This document shows positions 1-54,814 of a DNA stretch of 64,000 nt, piece after piece. Position numbers and translations under genes: made by a program. The notes under the pieces are model-generated. The model searched no databases and was not told where the DNA came from. It was given only the letters and a program-made list of their open reading frames with translations. The first letter of the stretch is position 1; the number at the start of each line of letters is the position of its first letter. Origin of the DNA: Patescibacteria group bacterium (GTDB lineage: Bacteria > Patescibacteriota > Patescibacteriia > UBA9934 > GWF2-40-263); NCBI GenBank assembly GCA_004297215.1, contig SCUM01000001.1:219642-283641 (forward strand), written 5' to 3'.

Positions 1-29
1 TCGATGATGCCATCCGGGCTTCCCTTCCG

Positions 30-581
30 ATGGATGATGGTCGTTGGCAGGATCGCATCGCTTTTTATCACTCCGTGGGACTGCTGAAAGACATCGCGGG
101 AAGGACCGACGCGGAATCGGCGAAAAAACTGCAAGAGGCATTTGCGTACGAGTGGAGCGACATTGCGGAACCGTATGACGAGATCTTCATGCTCGGCCTG
201 GATGCGGATCACGTCCTCGTGACCGACCCGGAAGCCGACGTCCTCGATGGGAATGAGATGTACGTCGAGACCTTGGACCAGCTGGCAAAGCTGTCTGACA
301 GCGCGTTTGCCCCAAAGGACATCGAGGAGCGCTGGGCCGGAGAGGAGGGTCCGGTCACCGTGTCGTTCAAGGTAGCCGGAACGTCGCATACGTTCTCCCC
401 TGCCTATCTCGACGACTGGCTGGACCTTGGCGCCACGCTCGACGCGGCGAACGCGACCCTGCCGGCCGACGGATCTCGGTTCTGGATGTTCGTCGACGGG
501 AACACCGCCATCATCGCTTTCCTCACCGCGGCCCAACATGAAGCCATCAGGACGAAGCGCGGCATCGAGTTCGTAAGATAA
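30..581 (+). CDS. hypothetical protein (reading frame is open to window start; may be 5'-partial)
   Basis: 183-aa ORF with genome-typical composition, followed by a hairpin terminator. No recognisable motif. Confidence 0.45.
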   Translation: MDDGRWQDRIAFYHSVGLLKDIAGRTDAESAKKLQEAFAYEWSDIAEPYDEIFMLGLDADHVLVTDPEADVLDGNEMYVETLDQLAKLSDSAFAPKDIEERWAGEEGPVTVSFKVAGTSHTFSPAYLDDWLDLGATLDAANATLPADGSRFWMFVDGNTAIIAFLTAAQHEAIRTKRGIEFVR

Positions 582-605
582 AAAAGCCCCGAGCGGAGTC
601 GGGGC
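581..605. terminator. bidirectional intrinsic terminator hairpin (GCCCCGA-GCGGA-GTCGGGGC flanked by A5 / T-tract on the opposite strand)
   Basis: Perfect 7-8 bp GC stem seen directly. It lies between the convergent ORFs 30..581 and 642..839. Confidence 0.5.
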
Positions 606-641
606 ATGCGTGGGCGGACTCTCGTGCGAATCCGCAGCGCG

Positions 642-839
642 TCAGCGCTTGTTCGCGCGGATGCGCTCGAGCGGGCCCATCCAGAGCGAACGGGGCCGTG
701 GCCGGTCAACGGCCGGATCGGGCGCCTCGGCCTCGTCGGCGTCATCGTCTGACGGGACCGGGGGAGGGCCGGCCGTGGAGGAAGGGGCCGGCGGTTGTTC
801 TTCGCGTCGTGGCGGCTTCTTGAATCCTTTGAAAGACAT
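642..839 (-). CDS. small Pro/Asp/Glu-rich hypothetical protein (65 aa from Met with a GGAGG SD 4 nt upstream; the ORF track extends to 905)
   Basis: ORF 642..905(-). The internal ATG at 837-839 is preceded by GGAGG. Low-complexity sequence, so it may be spurious. Confidence 0.25.
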   Translation of the reverse strand: MSFKGFKKPPRREEQPPAPSSTAGPPPVPSDDDADEAEAPDPAVDRPRPRSLWMGPLERIRANKR

Positions 840-1160
840 CGGTCCTCCGTCTGTATCGTCTCGGCACACGGTGAGCTGGAAGCCCATAAACGGTACGCCT
901 GGCATTTGCAGCCGTCAAACGTAAAACCCGCCATGAGGCGGAATGAATTGTGTTATCCACAGCCCTAGCCTTGAAGCACTGAACGAGTCATGCTAGTCTT
1001 CAAAATAGGCCGTTTTGGCCGTCATAAGTCTTTATTGGCAAGTGCTATGAAGGACTTTTTGATCGCTCCCACCTCGGAGAAGGATGAAATCCGGTAGCCG
1101 CGTGAATTCCAGTTCACAAAGCTGCTAGACAGAGGCCCGAACCTTTCGTTTGGGAGCAAC

Positions 1161-1331
1161 ATGGCACAAAGCGTCGGATGCTTGCGTGATGAAAGCAATA
1201 GCGTCTGGAAAACGCGCGGCGATGGATATGCACTGGAAATGCTGGGCCATCGCGTATATCACGACCCTGAGGAACGCAGAGTGAATATTGGCGGGGCTTC
1301 CAACCCCGTCTTTATTTTTGTCAACAAATAA
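1161..1331 (+). CDS. small hypothetical ORF (56 aa) in island, possible gene remnant
   Basis: ATG with a GGGAGC SD 5 nt upstream. It ends in the GGGGCTTCCAACCCC + T-run terminator (~1290-1320). Not in the ORF track because it is under 60 aa. Confidence 0.2.
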   Translation: MAQSVGCLRDESNSVWKTRGDGYALEMLGHRVYHDPEERRVNIGGASNPVFIFVNK

Positions 1332-2042
1332 TTACTTTGTTGAAACATTACGAACAAGCGAGACGACGCCCTTATAAAGGCAGTACACGACTACCACGTC
1401 TCCGAAGATCGCCGCGCCAGTACCAATGATATCTGCTGTCGCGTTGCCAGTATTACTTAACGCATATCCAAGCAATGCAATACACAGACCAATGACGAAA
1501 ATAACCCATATCGATATTCCACGCTTCTGCTTTCCCTTTTCTGCTTTCCCTATTTGATTGCCAAGGATGATGTAGAGTGTCGCCTGCCTGATACCAAGAA
1601 ATACAACTATAACAATGAGAAGAGCTAGCAATCCGATACCGACGGCTTCACCGCTACCATCTTCCTGTTGATTGATGCTGTTCGGTACGCAAGATTCAGT
1701 CGCGGCCACGTCATTCCAGTAGACCGGATAATAACTAAGAAAGGCACACCCGAATTCAGCATTCGTTATCCATGGATTTGAAACTTCTTTAGCAAAATCT
1801 TCGCCGAGAAATTTTTGCATCTCGGCATTATCTGCGTATGCCTCCCCAACCTTTAAACCGAACTCATCAAGTGACAGTTCACCGGTTCCCAAACACCCGA
1901 CACAGCTTGGTGTATTTTGATCCTCAGTGGCGACTGCTAGTGTCACACCCAGAACGACTATGACCGCTAGCGAAAAAACAAGCCCATACACGACTTGCAC
2001 CAAACGCCACCACGACGTTTTATTTAGCTGTTCGTACGTCAT
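1332..2042 (-). CDS. hypothetical membrane protein (N-terminal TM, ~100-aa Cys-containing extracytoplasmic domain, 2-3 C-terminal TMs)
   Basis: 236-aa ORF in the low-GC island. Hydrophobic segments are read from the translation. No family recognised. Confidence 0.55.
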   Translation of the reverse strand: MTYEQLNKTSWWRLVQVVYGLVFSLAVIVVLGVTLAVATEDQNTPSCVGCLGTGELSLDEFGLKVGEAYADNAEMQKFLGEDFAKEVSNPWITNAEFGCAFLSYYPVYWNDVAATESCVPNSINQQEDGSGEAVGIGLLALLIVIVVFLGIRQATLYIILGNQIGKAEKGKQKRGISIWVIFVIGLCIALLGYALSNTGNATADIIGTGAAIFGDVVVVYCLYKGVVSLVRNVSTK

Positions 2043-2103
2043 AGGTAAGCATCATTAATCGTTTGCAGTATAACACAACACCTGTCTTTCGGCGGGTATT
2101 TAC

Positions 2104-2769
2104 TTATTTCAGTGTCGTGACCTTGTTCGACCACCGTTCATGGAGTGCTATATGCGGGATCTGGAAAGACTCAGCCAATCTTACTACATCAGCCATCCAT
2201 ATTTCGGGAATTGCCCCGATCTGTGTAATGATTAGGTTGACCCGACAGTTCGTCTTCTTCATCAGGGCGAGCTCAATTTGTCGAAATGGATTTGTTATTG
2301 AACTAGCAGGCAGACTAACAACTATAAGCCCTAAATTGTTCTCCTCGCATCGCCTGATCCACTCAGCATCTGATAAATCCAACTGTTTATTCAGAATTTT
2401 CTTAAGTTCCTGGATCGCTCGACCTTCATCCCTGTGTCCCTTAGGAAGTTTTTTTAGAATTAGCGAGAGTCCTGCCGCTCGTTCTGTTGCTATGGGTAAA
2501 AATACCTTACCCAACCCTTCCGACTTACGTTGATAGATAACATTATTCGGGTCGCCGCCAGCCAAGGTGTGCTGGAAATATGCTTCCAGGCCATTAGCGT
2601 CTATAACCTTAAAGTCAGATTCGGGTGACTGTCCCAATCGCATAAACTCTATAACTGCTGCCCCATACACTGACTCATACCAACGATCGAAGGAATTTCG
2701 AAAAAGTCGAATTTCATCCTCAGTCCACTGTTCAAAGGCGTTGATTGAAATTACTTCTCTAACATTCAT
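2104..2769 (-). CDS. hypothetical cytosolic protein, first gene of the island two-gene module
   Basis: 221-aa ORF at ~44% GC. No recognisable motif. Confidence 0.55.
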   Translation of the reverse strand: MNVREVISINAFEQWTEDEIRLFRNSFDRWYESVYGAAVIEFMRLGQSPESDFKVIDANGLEAYFQHTLAGGDPNNVIYQRKSEGLGKVFLPIATERAAGLSLILKKLPKGHRDEGRAIQELKKILNKQLDLSDAEWIRRCEENNLGLIVVSLPASSITNPFRQIELALMKKTNCRVNLIITQIGAIPEIWMADVVRLAESFQIPHIALHERWSNKVTTLK

Positions 2770-2778
2770 AACCTAGAC

Positions 2779-2802
2779 AAAACCCGCCGTGAGGCGGGTT
2801 TT
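2779..2802. terminator. intrinsic terminator hairpin CCCGCC-GTGA-GGCGGG flanked by A4/T4 (bidirectional)
   Basis: Seen in sequence immediately downstream of rpsI. Confidence 0.6.
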
Positions 2803-2810
2803 CGGTTCGC

Positions 2811-3215
2811 TTAACGCTTGGCCCACTGCGGGGAGCGGCGGGCGCCTTTCTTGCCGTATTTCTTGCGCTCGCGCTTGCGCGCGTCGCGGGTGAGGAAACG
2901 GTTCTTCTTGAGCACCGCGCGGTATTCCGGATTGAAGACGAGCAGGGCGCGGGAGATGCCCAGGCGGATGGCGTCGGCCTGGCCGGTGATGCCGCCGCCT
3001 TCGGTGGCGGCGGTCACGTCGAATTTCCCTTCCATCCCGATCGCGGTGAACGGACGGACCACGTTCTGGCGCAGGATGTCGGTGCCGAAGTACTGGCCCA
3101 GGTCCTTGCCGTTGATGGTGACCTTGCCGGTTCCCCCCGCGATGAGGTGCACGCGCGCCGTGCTGGTCTTGCGGCGGCCGAGGCCGTAGTACTGGTTGTC
3201 TTTCGTTTCTGCCAT
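2811..3215 (-). CDS. rpsI: 30S ribosomal protein S9
   Basis: 134 aa with the typical basic C-terminus ...RKRERKKYGKKGARRSPQWAKR and the GLGRRK N-terminal motif. Confidence 0.95.
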   Translation of the reverse strand: MAETKDNQYYGLGRRKTSTARVHLIAGGTGKVTINGKDLGQYFGTDILRQNVVRPFTAIGMEGKFDVTAATEGGGITGQADAIRLGISRALLVFNPEYRAVLKKNRFLTRDARKRERKKYGKKGARRSPQWAKR

Positions 3216-3219
3216 ACGT

Positions 3220-3579
3220 TTAAGCCTTCACGGTGAGCCGCTTGAGTCGCGGGGTGCGGTGGCTGTTTTTCGGGAGCATGCGCGAGACCGCGCGGGTGAT
3301 CACCTGCGTCGGGTCCTCTTCCATGGCGGTCTTCATCGCCTTGGTGCGTAGGCCGCCTGGGGCGCCGGTGTGGTGGTAGTAGGCCTTCTGCTCAAGCTTG
3401 CGGCCCGTGACCTTCACCTTGGCGGCGTTCACCACCTCCACGATGTCCCCGGCGTCGACGTTGGGGAAGAAATCCACCTTATGCTTGCCGATGAGCAGGT
3501 GCGCGATGCGCGAAGCGAGCCGGCCCGGGGCCTGGCCTTCGGCGTCGATCACGTGCGTGGCGCGGGAAATCTTTGCCAT
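3220..3579 (-). CDS. rplM: 50S ribosomal protein L13
   Basis: 119 aa with GRLASRIAHLLIGKHK, typical of L13. Confidence 0.93.
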   Translation of the reverse strand: MAKISRATHVIDAEGQAPGRLASRIAHLLIGKHKVDFFPNVDAGDIVEVVNAAKVKVTGRKLEQKAYYHHTGAPGGLRTKAMKTAMEEDPTQVITRAVSRMLPKNSHRTPRLKRLTVKA

Positions 3580-3940: not shown

Positions 3941-4675
3941 TTACTCCTTGGCCGGTTCCTCCACCGGCATTTCTCCGCCTTCGGCGGGAGGATTTTGGAG
4001 CAGGATGGAAAAATGGTCGATGAGGGTGTTGGCGGCGCTCTTCACGGCCTCTTCGGGCGTGATGGTGCCGTCGGTCTCGATGGTCATCGTGAGCTTGTCG
4101 TAGTTGGTGATCTCGCCCACGCGCGTGTTTTCCACCTTGTATCCCACGCTGCGGACCGGGGAGAACAGGGCGTCCACCGCGATGGTGCCGAGCTCGGCGG
4201 CCCCGGAGGGGCGCTCCTCGGTCGGGCTGTAGCCCCGGCCGCGGCCCACGGTGATTTCCATGTCGAGGACCGCCTTGTCATCGGTGAGCGTGGCGATCGT
4301 CAGGCTCGGGTTCGCGATCTCGACGTCCGCGTTCTTCTCGATGTCCTTGGCCGTGACGACCTTCGCGCCCTTCACCTTGAGCGAGAGCTTGACCGGCTCC
4401 TCGCTGTGGGACTTGAGGCGCAGCCCCTTGAGGTTGAGGATCATCTCAAGCACGTCCTCCTTGACCCCGTCAATGGCCTGGAACTCATGCGTGGCGCCCT
4501 TGATGCGGATGGCGGTGACCGCCGCTCCGGTAAGGGACGAGAGCATGACGCGGCGCAGGGCGTTGCCGAGCGTCGTGCCGTATCCGTGGTAACACGGTTC
4601 CACCACGACGACGCCCTCGTTGGGGCGCTCGCCGGCTTCGAAGCGGATGGCGGAGGGGAGAAGGATGTTCTCCAT
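3941..4675 (-). CDS. rpoA: DNA-directed RNA polymerase alpha subunit, N-terminal (assembly) domain only; no alpha-CTD
   Basis: 244 aa that align to alpha-NTD. The ORF ends in an acidic tail, with no linker or CTD. Confidence 0.9.
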   Translation of the reverse strand: MENILLPSAIRFEAGERPNEGVVVVEPCYHGYGTTLGNALRRVMLSSLTGAAVTAIRIKGATHEFQAIDGVKEDVLEMILNLKGLRLKSHSEEPVKLSLKVKGAKVVTAKDIEKNADVEIANPSLTIATLTDDKAVLDMEITVGRGRGYSPTEERPSGAAELGTIAVDALFSPVRSVGYKVENTRVGEITNYDKLTMTIETDGTITPEEAVKSAANTLIDHFSILLQNPPAEGGEMPVEEPAKE

Positions 4676-13330: not shown

Positions 13331-14695
13331 GTGAAATTATATCAACCGATAAGCGGCAAGATCGAACGTCTCGCGCATGACGGCAGCGGGGAGATTTCGC
13401 GTGCCGAAGGAAAGCCGTATTTCATCTACAACACGATTCCTGGCGAGACGATCACGGCGCTCCCGTTCAAGCGGGCGAAGGAAGGCGTGCGCGCGGAACT
13501 TCAGTCCGTGGCCGAAGCGTCGCTGGATCGCGTCAAACCGACCTGCCCGTATGCCGGCACCTGCGGCGGATGCAAATGGCAGCACATGGGCTACGAGCGC
13601 CAGCTCGCCGAAAAGCTTGCTGGCATCCGTGACGCCTTCGAGAAGGCCGGCCTTACATGTCCCGTCTCTTCCGTGATGCCCTGCCCGGACCCGCTGTACT
13701 ACCGCAATCGGATGGATTACGTGTTCGGTCGCAACGGGGAGCTCGGGCTCAAGCAGCCCAACAAGTGGTGGGCCACGCTCGATCTGGAAACCTGTTATCT
13801 CCTTTCTGAAGAGTCCGTCGAGGTGACGAGACGCGTCCGTGAATGGACACGAAAGACGGGTCTGCCCTTCTGGGACGCGAAGACACAAACGGGATTCTTC
13901 CGCTACCTCGTCATACGCGAGGGAAAGAACACGGGCGAGCGCATGGTAATGATCGTCACCGCTCGACCTGAAGCTCCCCAAGCTCATCAAGCTCTTCAAG
14001 AACTCCCCGCTCTTCTCGACAATCTGGCGACGTCCGTCATCTGGGGCATCAACCCGCATCTGACGGACCTTTCGATCGCCCACGAGATCATCCCGCTCAA
14101 AGGCAACCCGTGGATCCACGAACGGGTGAACGGCGTCTCCTACAAGATCACGCCCAACGCCTTTTTCCAGACCAACACGGTGATGGCCGCGAAGCTGCAA
14201 GACACGGTCCGTGATTTCTGCGGCGACCTGTCGGGCAAGACGCTGCTTGATCTGTACTGCGGGTCAGGATTCTTCTCGCTGGCGCTGGCGCGCGACCCCC
14301 TCATGCTCCCCCTTTCCAAGGGGGAGGTAGCGCGAGTGATCGGCATCGAGCTGTCGGCTGAGGCTATTGAGTGTGCGAAGGAGAATGCGGTCGCGAACGG
14401 GATAACTGCCGAATATTTCGCCTCATCCGCCGAAGCGTTCGACTGGAAAGGCTACGCGCCGGACGTGGTGATCCTCGACCCACCGCGCGCCGGGATGCAC
14501 CCGAAGGTAATCGAAACGATCCTTGAGGCCGCGCCTCCAGTCCTTGTGTACGTATCCTGCAGTTATACGCGTTTTATCCAGGAATTCACGAAGCTCGGCG
14601 ATAAGTACGTCCTCGACTCCGCCACCGCCCTCGACCTATTCCCGCAGACGCCGCACGTGGAGTGCGTGTTCAAACTCGTCCGTCGTCAATCATAA
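13331..14695 (+). CDS. rlmD: 23S rRNA (uracil-5-)-methyltransferase RlmD/RumA (TRAM + 4Fe-4S + SAM MTase)
   Basis: CPYAGTCGGCKWQ cluster, DPPRAG, and the C-terminal DLFPQTPHVE motif. Confidence 0.88.
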   Translation: MKLYQPISGKIERLAHDGSGEISRAEGKPYFIYNTIPGETITALPFKRAKEGVRAELQSVAEASLDRVKPTCPYAGTCGGCKWQHMGYERQLAEKLAGIRDAFEKAGLTCPVSSVMPCPDPLYYRNRMDYVFGRNGELGLKQPNKWWATLDLETCYLLSEESVEVTRRVREWTRKTGLPFWDAKTQTGFFRYLVIREGKNTGERMVMIVTARPEAPQAHQALQELPALLDNLATSVIWGINPHLTDLSIAHEIIPLKGNPWIHERVNGVSYKITPNAFFQTNTVMAAKLQDTVRDFCGDLSGKTLLDLYCGSGFFSLALARDPLMLPLSKGEVARVIGIELSAEAIECAKENAVANGITAEYFASSAEAFDWKGYAPDVVILDPPRAGMHPKVIETILEAAPPVLVYVSCSYTRFIQEFTKLGDKYVLDSATALDLFPQTPHVECVFKLVRRQS

Positions 14696-15197: not shown

Positions 15198-15293
15198 ATG
15201 TCATCGGGCAGGCTCCGTCAAATCGCCGCCACCCTCGACCTGTTCCCGAACACGCCGCATGTAGAGGGCGCGTTCAAGCTGGTGAGGAAATAA
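15198..15293 (+). pseudogene. degenerate duplicate of the rlmD 3' end (encodes ..IAATLDLFPNTPHVEGAFKLVRK*)
   Basis: About 80% nucleotide identity to 14618-14695, and protein-level identity to the RlmD C-terminus. Confidence 0.6.
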
Positions 15294-16235: not shown

Positions 16236-17105
16236 ATGGCTGAAACGCAGAAGAAATCCGGGTTCGCCGTGATGGTGGGGCGCTCCAACGTGGGGAAATC
16301 CACGATCTTGAACGAACTCGTTGGCTCCAAGGTGGCCATCACCACGCCAAAGCCGCAAACCACCCGCCTGCCCGTTCAGGGCATCGTTTCGCGTCCGGAA
16401 GGACAGGTGGTGTTCGTGGACACGCCGGGGATCATCCAGAAGTCCCGCGATTCCCTCACCCAGCGGATGACCAAGTCGGCAAAGGACTCGCTGCGCGACA
16501 TCGACGTGGTGCTGTATGTCGTGGACCCCACCCGTCACATCGGGGACGAGGAAAAGGCCGTGATGCGCATGCTCGAGGACGTGACGAAACCCAAGTTCCT
16601 CGTGATCAACAAGATGGACCTGCCCGAGGGCGAACGGGAATTCCAGGACTATTACGACGACCTTCAGGGGCTCTACGACGGGACGTTCGAGGTATCCGGC
16701 AAGACCGGCAAGGGCCTTGATGCGCTGCTCGCGGCGGTGTTCGAGAAGCTGCCGGAGGGCGAACCGTATTATCCGGAAGGCCAGCTCACCAACATGCCGA
16801 GCGAGCGCTGGGTGGCCGAGCTCATCCGCGAGAAGCTGTTCCTGCGCCTACGCGAGGAAGTGCCTTACTCCACGCACGTGGAGGTGGAAGAGCTGGAGCG
16901 CCGCGAGGACGGGACGATGTACGTCAAGGCGACCGTCTACACCACGGAGGAGCGCTACAAGCGCATGATCATCGGCGCGCGCGGCCAGGGCATCAAGGAG
17001 ATCGGAAGCAGCACGCGGCATGAGCTGGAGGCCGTGATGCAGACGAAAGTGTTCCTGGACCTGAACGTGGACACGGACCCGCATTGGGTGGACAGGATGG
17101 AGTGA
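16236..17105 (+). CDS. era: GTPase Era
   Basis: GRSNVGKSTILN G1 motif, DTPG, NKMD, and a KH domain at the C-terminus. Confidence 0.92.
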   Translation: MAETQKKSGFAVMVGRSNVGKSTILNELVGSKVAITTPKPQTTRLPVQGIVSRPEGQVVFVDTPGIIQKSRDSLTQRMTKSAKDSLRDIDVVLYVVDPTRHIGDEEKAVMRMLEDVTKPKFLVINKMDLPEGEREFQDYYDDLQGLYDGTFEVSGKTGKGLDALLAAVFEKLPEGEPYYPEGQLTNMPSERWVAELIREKLFLRLREEVPYSTHVEVEELERREDGTMYVKATVYTTEERYKRMIIGARGQGIKEIGSSTRHELEAVMQTKVFLDLNVDTDPHWVDRME

Positions 17106-17222
17106 GCGAAAACTTGAAACGTGAAAACTTGAAATCTTGAAAGGAAACGTGAAAACTTTTGAAAAGGCGAAACGGATAAACCGCTTCGTCTTTTTTCATC
17201 GTTTCAAAGTTTCAAGTTTTTC
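17106..17222. terminator. AT-rich intergenic palindromic repeat structure (GAAAACTTGAAA x3 direct + inverted copy) between convergent era and pilD; probable bidirectional terminator
   Basis: Direct and inverted repeats seen in sequence. Confidence 0.5.
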
Positions 17223-18012
17223 ACCCAAAAAACCCCATGTACCACGTGAGGATCGGTCGTCCGAACAGCAGCATCACGAGCGTTGCCAGGGTAAGGAACG
17301 TGCCGAACGGGACCTGCGTCTGCCAGGCCGCCTTCTCGCGCTGGATGAGGAAGAGCCCCACGACGGCACCCAGGGCATAGGCGATGAACAGGGCGCCCAG
17401 CGCGTCCTTCCAGCCGAGCATGAATCCCATGAGCACGCCCAGGCGGATGTCCCCGCCGCCGATCCAGCGGCCTTTGGAGAACAGGTATTGGGCCAGGAAG
17501 AATCCGCCCAGGATCAGCCCTCCCGACAGGAGATCGTACGGATGGAAGGTGCCAACCCACACGTTGAAGGCGAACGCGATCGCCATGGCCGGGACCGTGA
17601 ACCGATCCAGGATGAGGTAATACTTGAGGTCGTAGACGAACAGGAGCATCAGGGAGGTGACGAACGCCAGGTCGCGCAGGAAGAACGCCACCGACTGCAT
17701 CGGGGAAAGCTCCGGCGGCAAGCCGAATCCGTACATGAACCGGAGGTAAAAGACGAAAAACAGCAGCCCGGTGCCGAATTCCACCAGCGGGTACTGCCAG
17801 GAGATGCGCTCGCCGCAGCTTCGGCACTTGCCGCGCAGCGCGATGAAGCTCAAGACCGGGATCAGGTCCTTTGGGGCGATTTGCGCCTGGCAGGACAGGC
17901 AACGCGAACGCCCGCCAAAAGAACTCCCGGCGTTCGTGCGCAGGATGACCACGTTGAGGAAGCTCCCGACCGAGAGCCCGATGACGAAGGCCAAGAGCGC
18001 GCCCATCATCAT
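17221..18012 (-). CDS. pilD: type IV prepilin peptidase (A24 family)
   Basis: MMMGALLAFVIGLSVGSFLNVVILR, a Cys pair and polytopic TMs. Internal start abuts the upstream stop. Confidence 0.8.
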   Translation of the reverse strand: MMMGALLAFVIGLSVGSFLNVVILRTNAGSSFGGRSRCLSCQAQIAPKDLIPVLSFIALRGKCRSCGERISWQYPLVEFGTGLLFFVFYLRFMYGFGLPPELSPMQSVAFFLRDLAFVTSLMLLFVYDLKYYLILDRFTVPAMAIAFAFNVWVGTFHPYDLLSGGLILGGFFLAQYLFSKGRWIGGGDIRLGVLMGFMLGWKDALGALFIAYALGAVVGLFLIQREKAAWQTQVPFGTFLTLATLVMLLFGRPILTWYMGFFG

Positions 18013-43925: not shown

Positions 43926-44357
43926 CTACACGCCCAGCTCCCCGAGCTTCTCTGCGATGTTCCCTGCTTCCGCTTCGGTCTGGACCTTGTAGGCCTCCCA
44001 GCGCTCCGTATCCCAGAGCTCCAGGCGGTTATAGAGGCCCGCGACCACCACGTTCTTGGCTATTCCGGCGTACTTCCGAAGATATTCCGGAACCACGAGC
44101 CGTCCCTGCTTGTCCACGTCCACGTCCATTGCCCCCGCAAGCATGAGCCGGGCGAATGCGCGCGAATTGGACTGCCCCAGGGGCAAACCTGCCAGCTTTT
44201 CGGCAAGCTTGTCCCACTCCTCCTTGGGGAACAGGAACAGCGAAGCGTCAAGACCTCGCGTAACCACAGCCCCTCTCGCGAGGTCTTGGCGAAACTTCAC
44301 CGGGATCGCCAGGCGTCCCTTCTCGTCGATGGTGTGTTTGTACTCACCAATGAACAT
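43926..44357 (-). CDS. mraZ: transcriptional regulator MraZ
   Basis: Duplicated DxxxR / KGR.. motifs. 143 aa. Confidence 0.88.
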   Translation of the reverse strand: MFIGEYKHTIDEKGRLAIPVKFRQDLARGAVVTRGLDASLFLFPKEEWDKLAEKLAGLPLGQSNSRAFARLMLAGAMDVDVDKQGRLVVPEYLRKYAGIAKNVVVAGLYNRLELWDTERWEAYKVQTEAEAGNIAEKLGELGV

Positions 44358-44519
44358 GGGACTGTGGGTGGGGTAGAACTGCTTAAGAAAAAGCGAGCAC
44401 TGAACCGAAGTTCAATCCCCACTTCGTTCCACCTGCAACCACTATATGCCACTGCGTGACACGGGTCAACACGTTCCACCATCGCTGAATCTTGGCTAAT
44501 CCTGTATCATTTATAAAAA

Positions 44520-44540
44520 TTATCCATGTTCTGTGGATAA
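44520..44540. promoter_or_regulatory. inverted pair of DnaA-box-like 9-mers (TTATCCATG ... TGTGGATAA) in mraZ/doxX divergent region
   Basis: TGTGGATAA is a perfect match to the E. coli DnaA R-box. Seen directly. Confidence 0.35.
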
Positions 44541-44556
44541 CTAATCATTCCCCACT

Positions 44557-44952
44557 ATGATGTACGGATACTTCATGGCCGGCGGCCTGGGCATGCTCGC
44601 CTTGCGCCTTGCCCTTGCCGCGATCTTCATCGTCCACGGCCTCCCCAAGATCCAAAAGCCCGAGGGCATGGCAACGGCGATGAAATGGTCGAAAACGCAG
44701 GTGCAGGTGCTGGGCATCGCGGAGCTCGTGGGCGGATTGGCCGTTGGCACGGGGATTGCCATGAGCCTTGGCGCGCTCGTGCTCGCGGCGGTCATGGTGG
44801 GCGCGATCTACTACAAGACCCAGGTGTGGAAGACGCCGTTCACGGCGCACGACAAGATGGGCTGGGAGTTCGACCTCATCCTGCTCGCCGCGGCGCTCGC
44901 GGTGTGGTCCTCTTCCGGTTGGGGCTGGGGGATGATGGGCCGCTGGTACTAG
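44557..44952 (+). CDS. DoxX-family membrane protein
   Basis: 131 aa with a 4-TM DoxX pattern. Confidence 0.6.
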   Translation: MMYGYFMAGGLGMLALRLALAAIFIVHGLPKIQKPEGMATAMKWSKTQVQVLGIAELVGGLAVGTGIAMSLGALVLAAVMVGAIYYKTQVWKTPFTAHDKMGWEFDLILLAAALAVWSSSGWGWGMMGRWY

Positions 44953-51668: not shown

Positions 51669-53692
51669 TTCAGTTCTCTCATCAGATACACGATTTCGTC
51701 GCGCAGGATGGCGGCGGTCTCGAAGTCGAGCTCCTTGGCCGCGACCTTCATTTGTTTCTCTTTCTCCTTGATGACGGCCTCGATCTCATGCGGCTCGGCT
51801 ACCATCTCGATGTCGAGGATCTTCTCGACCGTCGCATCCGGATCGGCGCCGAGCATGGCGCGGATGTCCTTGATCTTCTTTTGAATCGTCTTGGGGGTGA
51901 TGCCGTGCTCCGCGTTGTGCGCGAGCTGGATCTTGCGGCGGCGGTCGGTCTCGCGGATGGCGCTCTTGAGCGAGCCGGTCATCTGGTCGGCGTAGAGGAT
52001 CACCTTGCCGTCCACGTTGCGCGCCGCGCGGCCGATCGTTTGGATGAGCGACGTCTCGGAGCGCAGGAACCCTTCCTTGTCCGCGTCGAGGATGGCGACG
52101 AGCGTGACTTCCGGCAGGTCGAGCCCTTCGCGCAGCAGGTTCACGCCCACCAGCACGTCGTAGGTGCCCTTGCGGAAATCCGTAAGGACCGTGATGCGGT
52201 CGAGCGTGCTCACGTCGGAGTGGAGGTATTGCACCTTGATGTCCTTCTCCTTCAGGAACTCCGTGAGGTCCTCGGCCATCTTCTTGGTGAGCGTGGTGAC
52301 CAGCGTGCGCTCGTTCTTGGCCGCCCGCGCGACGATCTCGCCTATCAGGTCTTCGACCTGCCCCTTTCCGCCCTTTCCGTCTTTTCCACCCTTTCCGGAA
52401 ACCGGCCGCACTTCCACGGCCGGGTCAACCAGCCCGGTCGGACGGATGATCTGTTCGACCGTCTGCGCCGACACCTTGTGCTCGAACAGGCCCGGCGTGG
52501 CCGAGACGAACACGGCCTGGCCGATCTTCTTTTCGAATTCCTGCCATTTGAGCGGGCGGTTGTCGCGCGCGCTCGGGAGGCGGAACCCGTGGTCGATGAG
52601 CGTGTTCTTGCGCGCCTGGTCGCCGTTATACATCCCGCCCACTTGCGGGACCGTGACATGCGACTCGTCCACGAATAGCAGGAAATCTTCCGGGAAGTAA
52701 TCGAGCAGGGTGTACGGCGGCTCCCCGGCCTTGCGTCCGTCGAAATGGCGCGAATAGTTCTCGATGCCGTTGCAGTACCCCACGTTCTGGATCATCTCGA
52801 TGTCATAGCGCGTGCGGCGCTTGAGGCGTTCGGCCTCAAGCGGCTTCCCTTCGGCCTCCAGTTCCTTGAGCCGTTCGTCGAGCTCGCGGCGCATGTCCGT
52901 AAGCGCGCGTTCCTTGGTCCGTTCCGGGACCACGTAGTGCTTGGCCGGGAATAGCCATTCGTCCTGGCGCGACGCCTTGTGCGAACGCGTCACCGGGTCG
53001 AGCTCGTCGATGCGCGAAGCCGTGTCGCCCTCGAAGGAGATGCGGTAGATGATCTCCTCGTTCATGGGCATCACCTCCATCACGTCGCCGCGCACGCGGT
53101 AGCTGCCGCGCTTCAAGTCCGCCGTGGTGCGCTCGAACTGCATGTCCACGAGCCGGCTCATCGTCTCTTCGCGATTCGATCCCTGCCCTGAGCCTGTCGA
53201 AGGGTCGCCGACCTTGAGATGCAGCACCTCCTTCTTGTACTCGGTGGGCGAGCCGAGGCCGTAGATGCAGGAGACGGACGCCACGATGATCGTGTCTCGT
53301 CGGGAAAGGATGGCCGACGTTGCCGCGTGGCGCAGGCGGTCGATCTCGTCGTTGATCATCGCCTCCTTTTCGATGTACGTGTCGGTGCGCGGCAGATACG
53401 CCTCCGGCTGGTAGTAGTCGTAGTACGACACGAAATACTCCACCGCGTTCTCCGGGAAGAACTCCCGGAACTCGTTGCACAGCTGCGCCGCCAGCGTCTT
53501 GTTATGCGCGAGCACGAGCGCCGGCCGCTGCGTCTGTTGGATGACGTTGGCCATCGTGAACGTCTTTCCCGAGCCGGTGACGCCAAGCAGCGTCTGGAAG
53601 CGGTCCTTGGACTTCAAGCCTGCGACCAACTGTTCGATGGCTTTCGGCTGGTCGCCAGCAGGTATATACGGAGCCTTCAGTTTGAATTTCAT
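51626..53692 (-). CDS. uvrB: excinuclease ABC subunit B
   Basis: Helicase motifs ([12 protein letters not shown]), a beta-hairpin and a UVR domain. Contains an in-frame GK-rich tandem-repeat insertion. Confidence 0.92.
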
Positions 53693-53832
53693 AAAAATTA
53701 TCCTTCCCTACCACCTACCCACTACCCCCTAACTTATGCGCAAACGCCCCGAGAGCCAGGGCTCTAGGGGGTATGTGAACGGATTGTGGGGACAGGCTAT
53801 CGGGAATCAGGCGAGTTGTCCACAATCTGATG

Positions 53833-53861
53833 TTGACGGAAAACACTTTTTAGCATATGCT
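53833..53861 (+). promoter_or_regulatory. sigma70-like promoter TTGACG-17nt-TATGCT
   Basis: Hexamers seen upstream of the tRNA region. Confidence 0.4.
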
Positions 53862-53912
53862 GTTCTCATCCAGGTGAGGTTCATGGTTGAATCCTCTCGG
53901 TGTCACATAAAA

Positions 53913-53942
53913 CGACCCTCTGAAATGAGGGGCGTTTTTTGT
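53913..53942 (+). terminator. hairpin + T6 between promoter and tRNA (attenuator or end of a short transcript)
   Basis: CGACCCTC-TGAAAT-GAGGGGCG followed by TTTTTT. Confidence 0.45.
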
Positions 53943-53962
53943 TCGTACCCTGGGCAGATCGT

Positions 53963-54038
53963 GGGCCCATGGAAGTAGTGGCAACTTCACCTGGATTGAC
54001 ACCGGGAGTCGCGGGTTCGATTCCCGCTGGGTCCACCA
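53963..54038 (+). tRNA. tRNA with atypical anticodon loop ATTGACA (nominal anticodon UGA, Ser-reading) but class-I architecture and alanine-like acceptor identity (G3:U70, A73)
   Basis: Hand-folded. Acceptor GGGCCCA/TGGGTCC, D-stem GAAG/CTTC, anticodon stem CCTGG/CCGGG, T-arm GCGGG-TTCGATT-CCCGC, and CCA. Followed by a terminator. Confidence 0.6.
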
Positions 54039-54046
54039 GCCCGGGA

Positions 54047-54086
54047 CCAACCGCCCCGCCCATTTGGGCGGGGTTGGAACCCTTTT
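54047..54086 (+). terminator. GC-rich hairpin (CCAACCGCCCCGCCC-ATTT-GGGCGGGGTTGG) + T-run
   Basis: Seen directly after the tRNA. Confidence 0.6.
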
Positions 54087-54301
54087 CCATCAAAAGTCGA
54101 GGATCTCTCTTCCGAGAAGGCCGTCTCGGTGTTCCTATCCTTCATTTCAAAAAGATTGTCTCCATCGGATCCAAAATCTGCGTTCAAATCACTCAAACGG
54201 CTTCTGGCGCTCAATACGAAAAAGAACTACAAGGATTTCGAACTTGCGCAACGAAAGATCGTGTTCTTGAATGTCACGTAAACTGCCGCGCGCTCCCACA
54301 C

Positions 54302-54814
54302 CTATTTCTCCCCGTACTCGATCACGATCACGTCGTGGTCGCGCATCACGAGATTCTCGAACTTCGTCGACGGCTTGCCGTTGACCGTCATCGTGACCGC
54401 ATGCGAGTCATCCGCCACCTTGTCGAGAATCTGCGTGGCGGAGAACGGCTTGCCCCATACGGCGAAGAAGTCGCCGAGGGTGAAAGGCTGCTCGGTGGGA
54501 TACTCTATGTGAATCTTGCCGGTGGCGTCGTGCGTGTGCAATGCGCGCATGCATGAGGCATCGACCCCGATGTCGGCGGGAAGCTCCACGCGCTCTCCGT
54601 CCACGAGGATGGCGAGCTCGGGATGCACGTGATAGCTGATCGCGGACCCGTGCGTGACGCAGGCCATGGCCAGCTCGCGGGTCGACGACTCGGGTTCGGA
54701 GATTTCCAGAGCAGGTTCGGGCACGGAGGGTTCCGGCGCTTCCGACTTCAAGGCGAAGACGAGCAGGGTGACGACCGCGAGGACGGGGATGCCGTACGTG
54801 AGGATCGGTTTCAT
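54302..54814 (-). CDS. hypothetical secreted/membrane-anchored protein (HTHD motif)
   Basis: 170 aa with a signal anchor, next to the copper cluster. Confidence 0.5.
   Translation of the reverse strand: MKPILTYGIPVLAVVTLLVFALKSEAPEPSVPEPALEISEPESSTRELAMACVTHGSAISYHVHPELAILVDGERVELPADIGVDASCMRALHTHDATGKIHIEYPTEQPFTLGDFFAVWGKPFSATQILDKVADDSHAVTMTVNGKPSTKFENLVMRDHDVIVIEYGEK

Follow-up and report, generated by a model that had tools for sequence, protein, structure and literature searches.

We found that a 1.84-kb segment of low GC content (positions 942-2778) in a Candidatus Uhrbacteria (Patescibacteria) genome is an insertion: alignment with related genomes and its foreign composition identify it as horizontally acquired DNA that was recombined into the terminator hairpin of rpsI. 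The segment, called the island below, lies in the 64-kb stretch of DNA analysed here (the window, to which all positions refer), and its features are collected in Table 1. As a genomic islet with orphan cargo, it is of an ordinary kind. Our overall explanation, which we consider probable but far from certain, is a foreign islet in the rpsI terminator, which would have been placed there by a recombinase acting in trans, would be expressed by read-through and may carry cargo of the conflict type.

Table 1. Features of the island and its flanks.
Feature	Position	Strand	Basis
Host small gene, 65 aa, Pro/Asp-rich, SD GGAGG	642..839	-	ORF; GC3 0.74
Distal 19-nt repeat copy = 5'-truncated hairpin, 6-bp stem + UUUUACGUUU	923..941	-	repeat search, fold
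Island tail, 390 nt, without credible minus-strand gene	942..1331	+	ORF list, fold, family searches
Cargo gene 2, 236-aa four-helix membrane protein, EPO34_01105	1332..2042	-	ORF, topology; GC3 0.45
Degenerate third hairpin copy (AAATACCCGCCGAAAGACAGGTGTT)	2077..2101	-	best island match to window hairpin
Cargo gene 1, 221-aa soluble protein, EPO34_01110	2104..2769	-	ORF; GC3 0.43
rpsI-proximal 19-nt repeat copy	2779-2797	-	part of complete hairpin
Complete rpsI intrinsic terminator hairpin (AAAACCCGCC-gtga-GGCGGGTTTT)	2779..2802	-	fold; aligns with single hairpin of empty-site relatives
rpsI, last gene of rpsM-rpsK-rpsD-rpoA-rplQ-rplM-rpsI operon	2811..3215	-	ORF, Pfam Ribosomal_S9

By composition count, the island interior has a GC content of 0.458, compared with 0.634 for the remaining window; outside the island, 300-nt windows vary in GC with a standard deviation of 0.042, and no GC trough within the 64 kb is deeper or longer than that of the island. 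The original prediction had described a drop from about 68% to about 45%. The contrast is real, although about 68% slightly overstates the general level, the 200-nt windows adjoining the island having GC of 0.62-0.74. Near-identical 19-mers had also been reported at both boundaries, and these were recovered as a 19-nt direct repeat, AAAACCCGCC(A/G)TGAGGCGG, with 18 of 19 positions identical. A search of the window allowing up to three mismatches returned this pair and no other match (0.06 expected from shuffles). A dispersed REP-like repeat was rejected, as the hairpin has no further copies in the window; no hairpin-type flanking repeats were found at the window's other low-GC stretches. The rpsI-proximal repeat copy belongs to a complete hairpin, AAAACCCGCCgtgaGGCGGGTTTT, located 8 nt downstream of the rpsI stop codon and having a 10-bp stem (-17.9 kcal/mol). 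In the distal (left) copy one arm lacks its outer 5 nt, and the shorter stem folds with -10.5 kcal/mol. No tRNA was found near the insertion site.

Five loci from at least four related genomes (L082, L083, L084, L092/L093 and L103) carry a single hairpin and no island; their rpsI DNA is 88-91% identical to that of the window. On the rpsI-proximal side the window agrees with these empty sites from rpsI as far as GGCGGGTTTT. On the distal side the agreement starts at (T)CCGCC and includes acgtttgacgg, the ancestral flank that directly follows the distal repeat copy; from there the alignment continues into the upstream region of the small gene. The relatives align with the window both before and after the insert, which means that a 19-20 nt stretch of the hairpin was duplicated; this left the full terminator beside rpsI and a 5'-truncated copy past the insert. 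The original prediction had taken the repeats as a sign of insertion or duplication and had suggested looking in close relatives for a single hairpin next to rpsI; the five loci bear it out on both points. In several relatives an orthologue of the small gene follows the single hairpin immediately, so that this gene forms the other flank of the insertion (tblastn match to locus L092, E = 2e-4), opposite rpsI as the conserved flank. In the more distant relatives L104/L105, rpsI is followed after about 66 nt by a flippase gene. The pre-insertion state shown by these alignments was rpsI, one hairpin, and then either the small gene or a Wzx-type flippase. Across relatives the hairpin has compensatory stem changes (AAAAC/GTTTT versus ACAC/GTGT) and a loop of variable length, which, as judged from these sequences, is terminator-like behaviour.

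It is very improbable that the island is an assembly chimera, i.e. low-GC DNA of another organism or a small circle mis-joined at a short repeat. The bounding repeat is short, of the kind at which graph assemblers can mis-join, and the island is known from one sequencing run, but a Logan contig, assembled independently from k-mers of that run, is identical to the window over 5172 nt, both junctions included. Logan contigs are understood to be built from 31-mers; if so, read k-mers must span both junctions, since the repeat, at 19-20 nt with one mismatch, is shorter than a 31-mer. Moreover, the host contig is 842 kb long, and a comparable insert occupies the same place in a sister genome that comes from another study and is seen in two records (L002/L085).

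This sister genome, Ca. Uhrbacteria RIFCSPHIGHO2_01_FULL_63_20 (L002), carries a segment of roughly 0.9 kb with GC of 0.46-0.50 after its rpsI hairpin. The insert encodes an 84-aa protein with a HicA_toxin match (PF07927, E = 1.6e-6) that exceeds the gathering score. The window genome and L002 share 82% identity in the flanking flippase. Since low-GC DNA unrelated to the island, with a gene for a HicA-family toxin, lies at the same spot, the comparison of the two occupied genomes available shows this intergenic spot to be a recurrent insertion hotspot. The two insertions fall within about 20-40 nt of each other; the low-GC DNA of the sister begins about 18 nt downstream of its hairpin, not within it.

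Like integrase-type islands, the segment has target direct repeats at both ends, is absent from syntenic relatives and is atypical in composition. The island encodes no tyrosine or serine recombinase, the 221-aa, 236-aa and 56-aa ORFs having no recombinase match and no ORF other than the two cargo genes being of recombinase size, and a regex scan for tyrosine/serine recombinase motifs over the 64-kb window, which is not a full annotation, gave two loose matches in unrelated large ORFs. This agrees with the earlier statement that the window holds no recombinase: there is none in the island, and the scan found none convincing in the window. A recombinase is therefore hypothetical. If one acted, either in trans or before it was lost, the 19-nt repeats could represent its attL/attR-type cores, and the island would be a non-autonomous integrative islet comparable to cis-mobilisable elements. 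The offset start of the sister insert is a poor fit to a strictly site-specific mechanism.

Insertion sequences, transposons and MITEs have terminal inverted repeats and a target-site duplication of 2-14 bp, a transposase being optional. Such an element was rejected here: there are no terminal inverted repeats (208 of 500 shuffles gave an end-to-end match as good as the best one here, 12/20), the duplication measures 19-20 nt, and no transposase family was matched. An IS200/IS605-type element was rejected on the ground that the hairpins at the flanks duplicate sequence of the host.

Illegitimate capture, needing neither a dedicated recombinase nor a mobile element, would also explain several of these features, though we think it unlikely. 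The palindrome would have been broken by cruciform or hairpin cleavage or by replication stalling, foreign DNA taken up from a low-GC organism would have entered by end-joining or template switching, and most of the palindrome would have been duplicated when staggered ends were filled in. The duplicated segment is indeed almost exactly the palindrome, the sister insertion point is nearby and not identical, and we found neither a recombinase nor terminal inverted repeats, nor any related element in the databases searched. Against this, two independent insertions so close together, along with the hairpin-like sites within both inserts described below, point to a targeted process. Integration by a trans-acting recombinase is the reading that we carry forward.

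The 221-aa, 236-aa and 56-aa ORFs had been placed correctly, as had the common orientation of the two large ones. Both of these are co-oriented with rpsI and are separated from each other by a 61-nt spacer, and the ATG of cargo gene 1 lies 9 nt beyond the terminator T-tract. In shuffled DNA of 46% GC the longest ORF averages 105 codons, as against 221 and 236 codons here, and in both genes GC is highest at the first codon position and lowest at the second (GC1 > GC3 > GC2). Location on one strand, length relative to shuffles and GC by codon position all count in favour of two real genes. Their codon composition is foreign, with GC3 of 0.43-0.45 versus 0.81-0.90 for host genes. The 236-aa product had been described as a membrane protein with a Cys-containing extracytoplasmic domain, and this description holds: it has four hydrophobic segments (residues 11-41, 128-162, 172-199 and 201-230) and a 90-residue acidic loop carrying C47xxC50, C99 and C118. 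By the positive-inside rule, this acidic four-cysteine (CxxC) loop is predicted to be extracellular.

As had been supposed, neither cargo protein belongs to a recognisable family. A word-indexed search of 5.8 billion protein clusters returned only the query for both, as did a full phmmer search of 1.84 billion representatives for the 221-aa protein. Pfam, PADLOC, PHROGs and NCBIfam gave only noise for all island ORFs; PADLOC-DB 2.0 contained no defence family at E <= 1 for the three island ORFs, and the cargo proteins showed neither HicA/HicB similarity nor a match to any toxin or antitoxin family. PDB sequence searches with the cargo proteins gave no family match, and the best match, a 'nuclease' at E = 0.56, was disregarded. 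No paralogues of the island proteins were found by tblastn in all sequence collected, including the relatives' loci. Viral contigs yielded no relatives of either cargo protein, and the island DNA had no blastn match in phage and plasmid collections. Family and structure searches had been proposed together with the original prediction. The AF2 single-sequence models were too poor to use (pLDDT 47.6 for the 221-aa and 58.7 for the 236-aa protein), and their fold matches were generic, with beta-alpha-beta units for the 221-aa model. GT-A glycosyltransferases and two PD-(D/E)xK CdiA-CT toxins among these matches were not taken as evidence.

A consensus scan of positions 500-3300 found no sigma-70-like promoter. 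The cargo genes would then have no promoter of their own and depend on weak transcription that passes the rpsI terminator. The source of this read-through would be the strongly expressed ribosomal-protein operon, while the truncated distal hairpin may shield the downstream gene.

Our best guess, made by analogy, is that the cargo consists of accessory genes of the conflict type, perhaps toxin/immunity or abortive-infection-like, which are the usual occupants of such hotspots; the membrane protein might act as effector, with the soluble protein as its sensor or neutraliser. The HicA-family toxin module at the same hotspot in the sister genome gives this circumstantial support. Both cargo proteins exceed the typical size of type II toxin-antitoxin components. 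Another function was considered on account of the neighbouring surface-polysaccharide cluster, which contains a Wzx flippase (Polysacc_synt), GT4 and GT2 glycosyltransferases and a Wzy-like protein. The cargo could be envelope-related and tied to this cluster rather than to toxicity or defence, in the manner of the low-GC serotype-specific genes that border glycan loci. The island is co-oriented with the flippase/glycosyltransferase cluster and lies about 1.6 kb upstream of it, and one of its products is a membrane protein whose outside loop is rich in cysteine. We nevertheless give this reading a low probability: no glycosyltransferase or other envelope family was matched at any threshold, the 221-aa model and its generic matches are unreliable, the other occupant of the hotspot is a toxin-antitoxin module and not a glycan gene, and the small gene and an opposite-strand 253-aa gene separate the island from the flippase.

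The tail of the island contains the 56-aa ORF on the plus strand (1161-1331), preceded by an SD-like GGGAG; its frame reaches upstream to about 990 with one TAG. A plus-strand terminator-like hairpin plus T-tract lies at 1290-1320 (a fold z of -2.4 was reported for the tail). Because this terminator is inside its 3' end, the ORF, which had been called a possible remnant, is doubtful as a gene. Translation of 942-1331 (in six frames, or three by the narrower count) gave no Pfam matches, and there was no relevant Rfam match at E <= 1.

A degenerate third copy of the hairpin lies in the spacer between the cargo genes and begins 3 nt past the end of the 221-aa gene's stop codon. It matches the window hairpin at 20 of 29 positions and the sister hairpin B, which overlaps the HicA stop codon in L002, at 21 of 29; none of 300 shuffles reached either value. 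The window island has one copy of the 9-mer ACCCGCCGA and the L002 island two, in the same orientation; 8 other matches were found in about 1.97 Mb (both strands) of sequence searched. Given the third copy between them, the cargo genes are possibly separate cassettes. Of the 'two-gene module' originally proposed, the two co-oriented genes therefore stand and their unity is uncertain; the degenerate hairpin argues against a single two-gene element and points to repeated events or to a cassette structure.

These sites, together with the absence of promoter-like sites in the island genes, would be consistent with a cassette array, a reading which we consider improbable. The 221-aa gene, and the 236-aa gene with the tail, would be two promoterless cassettes with hairpin-derived end sites, inserted successively at the rpsI terminator by a trans-acting recombinase and expressed from the ribosomal operon, and the sister HicA insert would be another array. 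However, there are only two occupied genomes, no integrase adjoins the locus, and the middle site is far more diverged than the outer repeat and a poor hairpin. It is the sole window match to its pattern, the extended site pattern was found nowhere else in the window, and the island-type hairpin pattern gave 9 matches in viral contigs, which by a rough estimate is about the chance number. Nor do the hairpins resemble the attC sites of integrons, which follow the consensus RYYYAAC ... GTTRRRY and are 57-141 nt long. The flanking site is a 10-4-10 palindrome of 24 nt whose ends, cgAAAAC and GTTTTgt, are outside this consensus, and a classical integron was rejected on the grounds that there is neither an attC consensus nor an adjacent intI. 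It seems quite unlikely to us that the rpsI terminator of this Uhrbacteria genus is the docking site of a previously undescribed Patescibacteria cassette-capture system. If it were, cassettes would be placed into the hairpin or beside it, the logic would be that of an integron but with unrelated sites and without an integrase nearby, and the two orphan proteins would be independent cargo, not a pair.

To our knowledge, horizontal gene flow and mobile elements are poorly documented in the Patescibacteria (candidate phyla radiation), and a literature search found nothing directly relevant. The locus allows a single site to be followed at base-pair resolution through empty, occupied and differently occupied alleles, and shows that a terminator hairpin behind a highly expressed operon can serve as a recurrent landing pad for foreign genes in these reduced genomes. 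The orphan cargo proteins may have a new membrane-associated function, in conflict or in the envelope, and the hairpin-derived sites within the inserts hint at a cassette mechanism. Should these functions and this mechanism fail, it would be one more small orphan-gene islet.

Several known systems share features with the island. Integron cassettes and CALINs, whose typical cargo is toxin-antitoxin and orphan genes, likewise have promoterless genes behind a strong transcription source and hairpin sites at their ends, but the window sites are 24-nt perfect terminator palindromes without the R''/R' consensus or length, and the outer sites of the island duplicate host sequence instead of being cassette-specific attC. 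IMEX/pdif modules lack a recombinase and lie between Xer-type palindromic sites, with small cargo including toxin-antitoxin genes. The island resembles them in having no recombinase, directly repeated palindromic flanks and small cargo, whereas its hairpin varies like a terminator and does not look like a conserved 11-6-11 dif-like protein-binding site. The HicAB module of the sister genome is at the same hotspot, is low in GC and has two small-to-medium co-oriented genes; unlike it, the window cargo encodes proteins two to three times larger, one of them a polytopic membrane protein, and its genes are 61 nt apart and not overlapping.

Variable hotspots between conserved core genes, for example those of Pseudomonas, reportedly gather defence and toxin-antitoxin genes. 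The present locus differs from these in having no recognised defence gene in the window island, in its tiny size (0-3 kb) and in the precise 19-nt target duplication visible in the window; it is like them in its conserved flanks (rpsI and the flippase), differing low-GC cargo, which in one genome includes a toxin-antitoxin module, and several empty relatives. Islets that are att-flanked and have no integrase are exemplified by the cis-mobilisable elements (CIMEs) of the ICESt1/ICESt3 family of Streptococcus thermophilus. In contrast to CIMEs, the island targets a terminator hairpin and not a gene 3' end or tRNA, is only 1.84 kb long and has no related copy in the databases searched, and we know of no cognate integrase-bearing element for this host. 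As in CIMEs, a short foreign segment with target direct repeats and no recombination genes of its own sits at the 3' end of a gene or operon that is conserved, and close relatives lack it.

We found that the island (2778 down to 942) has a GC content of 45.8%, against 63.4% in the window outside it, which is more than 4 SD below 300-nt windows elsewhere and the deepest trough of the 64 kb. The rpsI terminator provides the flanking repeat: the 19-mer AAAACCCGCC(A/G)TGAGGCGG recurs at the distal end with 18 of 19 positions equal, as a 5'-truncated hairpin whose 6-bp stem (-10.5 kcal/mol) precedes UUUUACGUUU. No further copy with up to three mismatches was found in the window (0.06 expected), nor any terminal inverted repeats of the island. 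The coordinates, repeat and ORFs of the original prediction were all correct. It had also stated that the window holds no recombinase, and a motif scan of the window found none; the island itself is too small to also fit one. Both cargo loci (EPO34_01105 and EPO34_01110) are on an 842,311-bp contig, and the nearest named relative of the genome is Candidatus Uhrbacteria bacterium RIFCSPHIGHO2_01_FULL_63_20.

Coordinates of the island, its flanks and other features in the window and in comparison loci (L-numbers)
Feature	Sequence	Position	Strand	Remark
Operon rpsM-rpsK-rpsD-rpoA-rplQ-rplM-rpsI	window	ends 2811	-	
rpsI terminator	window	2779-2802		perfect 10-bp-stem hairpin plus T-tract; -17.9 kcal/mol; 8 nt 3' of rpsI stop codon
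19-mer copies	window	2779-2797; 923-941		
221-aa cargo gene	window	2104-2769	-	EPO34_01110
Third, degenerate hairpin copy	window	2077-2101		AAATACCCGCCGAAAGACAGGTGTT; starts 3 nt past stop codon of 221-aa gene
236-aa cargo gene	window	1332-2042	-	EPO34_01105
Island tail	window	942-1331		390 nt
Terminator-like hairpin in tail	window	1290-1310	+	plus T-tract
Small gene	window	642-839	-	
Small gene	L082	4962-5177		
Small gene	L084	2487-2699		
Small gene	L092	from 639		
253-aa gene	window	1-581	+	partial; hydrophobic N-terminus
253-aa gene	L001	4592-5353	-	complete
107-aa gene, HicA-family gene and non-coding DNA after them	L002	6489-7053; 7053-7340		
rpoA	window	3941-4675	-	
rpoA	L002	4553-5281		
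rpoA	L104	4564-5274		
60-nt direct repeat	window	14620-14679; 15224-15283		82% identity; 604 nt apart
Short stretches of ~0.49-0.50 GC	window	16951-17401; 44251-44701; 53601-54451		one surrounds tRNA-Ser (53963-54038)

A milder low-GC stretch (14.5-15.8 kb, minimum 0.49 GC) holds a 60-nt direct repeat, which may represent tandem paralogous genes. Around this and the other low-GC stretches, no hairpin-type flanking repeats were seen in the regions scanned. The rpoA product of the operon is merely 236-250 aa in this lineage; its precomputed Pfam matches are the N-terminal and dimerisation domains only (RNA_pol_L, RNA_pol_A_bac), the alpha C-terminal domain not being listed.

All evidence for the assembled island comes from one sample. 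An assembly chimera, as a rival explanation, is very unlikely: a Logan contig, an independent assembly of the same run (SRR8426588) that reaches from rpsI over the island, the small gene and the 253-aa gene into the beginning of the flippase, matches the window across both junctions and is identical over the whole 5172-nt overlap. Logan contigs are built from 31-mers; since the repeat is shorter than this and the flanks of its two copies differ, both junctions must occur in reads.

The island was compared with other assemblies whose rpsI proteins cluster at at least 90% identity with that of the window. The predicted empty site, a single hairpin after rpsI, was seen in L082, L083, L084, L092/L093 (Hainich groundwater) and L103. 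In L092/L093, L082 and L084 the hairpin is followed by an orthologue of the small gene, and then, in L082 and L084, whose contigs are long enough to include it, by a Wzx-type flippase. In L083 and L103 the flippase follows the hairpin directly, and in the more distant L104/L105 (rpsI protein 64% identical) it follows rpsI after ~66 nt. The small gene encodes 65-71 Pro/Asp-rich residues behind a strong Shine-Dalgarno sequence; found after the rpsI hairpin in some genus members, it is absent from L083, L103 and the sister genome L002.

The empty sites could be aligned with both junctions (alignment A1). On the rpsI side, window and empty sites agree from rpsI to the end of ...GGCGGGTTTT, where the island sequence (gtctaggttATG...) takes over; on the distal side, the match resumes at (T)CCGCCtcaTGGCGGGTTTT and runs on through acgtttgacgg and all of the sequence upstream of the small gene. 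A hairpin of the same type (AAAATCCGCCtcacGGCGGGTTTTcgtttgacg) is present in L092. The hairpin was therefore duplicated over 19-20 nt on insertion, which left the full terminator beside rpsI and a truncated copy at the distal end. The insertion reading is strongly supported: the junctions show that the rpsI terminator received foreign DNA by recombination, with 19-20 nt of the target being duplicated. With rpsI DNA 88-91% identical to that of the window, these relatives are congeners, not strains, and the insertion is later than their divergence. The repeats would be attL/attR-type cores, made by a site-specific recombinase that was provided in trans or has since been lost; illegitimate capture at a broken palindrome is a rival explanation of the same junctions.

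The sister genome, Uhrbacteria 63_20 (L002; identical sequence recovered as JGI contig L085), keeps both flanks (protein identity to the window 91% for rpsI and 82% for the flippase) around another, different segment, ~0.9 kb long and with 0.46-0.50 GC. Its two genes overlap: the first codes for 107 aa and gave no HicB or other family match, and the 84-aa product of the second matches Pfam HicA_toxin (E = 1.6e-6, above gathering score). This low-GC DNA starts not within the hairpin but ~18 nt past it, after gacgggtgg, which is left over from the ancestral flank. The insertion site was hit independently in the sister lineage. The two genes are followed by a non-coding stretch of ~260 nt, also of low GC, which terminates right before the flippase with a half hairpin site (ACCCGCCGATGGACA). 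A second indel at the same hotspot is the 253-aa gene, of host-like GC and without a family match, which lies between small gene and flippase in the window genome only and is absent from L082 and L084. The whole interval from the rpsI terminator to the flippase start codon is therefore variable across the genus: it is empty in some members and elsewhere holds the small gene, the HicA module or, together with extras, the orphan island.

Both large ORFs are very likely real genes. Their 221 and 236 codons on one strand fill 75% of a 46% GC segment, where shuffled sequence gives a longest ORF of 105 codons on average, and both have GC1 > GC3 > GC2 (0.53/0.43/0.36 and 0.55/0.45/0.38). Their GC3 is 0.43-0.45 versus 0.81-0.90 in neighbouring host genes; judged by composition, the island DNA is foreign and unameliorated. 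As predicted, the cargo has no recognisable family: Pfam, NCBIfam, PHROGs, PADLOC and PDB sequence searches were all negative. A word-indexed search of 5.8 billion clusters with either protein, and full phmmer over 1.84 billion representatives with the 221-aa protein, returned the query alone. Phage and plasmid collections gave no match to the island DNA, and viral contigs held no cargo relatives. The 236-aa protein has four hydrophobic helices, both termini predicted inward, an inside loop rich in Lys/Arg and, on the predicted outside, an acidic loop of 90 residues (net charge -13) that contains C47xxC50, C99 and C118. The pI of the 221-aa protein is close to neutral, and none of its segments is hydrophobic.

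The first cargo ATG lies 9 nt past the terminator T-tract and a consensus scan of 500-3300 found no sigma-70-like promoter, so expression of the cargo would most simply come from the ribosomal operon, at a low level, by read-through of the terminator. The truncated distal hairpin would limit transcription into the small gene. The tail has no convincing minus-strand gene and no family or Rfam match, and folds somewhat better than shuffles (z = -2.4). On its plus strand is an ORF of 56 aa that has an SD-like GGGAG and stays open upstream to ~990 save one TAG; a good terminator-like hairpin lies inside the last codons of this ORF. The tail could be what is left of a gene, or a small (convergent) RNA unit.

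The third hairpin copy is the island's best match both to the window's own hairpin (20/29) and to L002 'hairpin B' (21/29), which overlaps the HicA stop codon; 0/300 shuffles attained either score. The window island contains the 9-mer ACCCGCCGA once and the L002 island contains it twice, all in one orientation; eight further copies occur in the ~1.97 Mb (both strands) compared. These sites were not found elsewhere in the window. Each cargo gene could be a cassette of its own that ends in a hairpin-derived site, a lead from two occupied genomes; two unrelated cassettes would be the rival to a functional pair.

Our best guess, a doubtful one, is that the cargo is a conflict-type accessory pair of membrane effector and cytosolic partner, as suggested by the setting in a hotspot, the sister genome's HicA module and the fact that both genes are orphans. 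The toxin or defence reading of the original prediction is unproven, and a role in envelope or glycan functions tied to the neighbouring flippase and glycosyltransferase cluster competes with it.

The island is a small islet that a member of a poorly studied phylum acquired horizontally, and its cargo is orphan. Its empty and alternative alleles form an unusually clean series, and there is a modest hint of a cassette mechanism. Among known systems, an IS, transposon or MITE was rejected (no terminal inverted repeats; duplication too long), as were an integron cassette (no attC consensus, no intI) and known toxin-antitoxin or defence families (no domain matches). A Xer/dif-type module also seems unlikely because the hairpin evolves like a terminator, by compensatory stem changes and loop-length variation. 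Within its core-gene-flanked hotspot, the island behaves like a CIME, a non-autonomous att-flanked islet.
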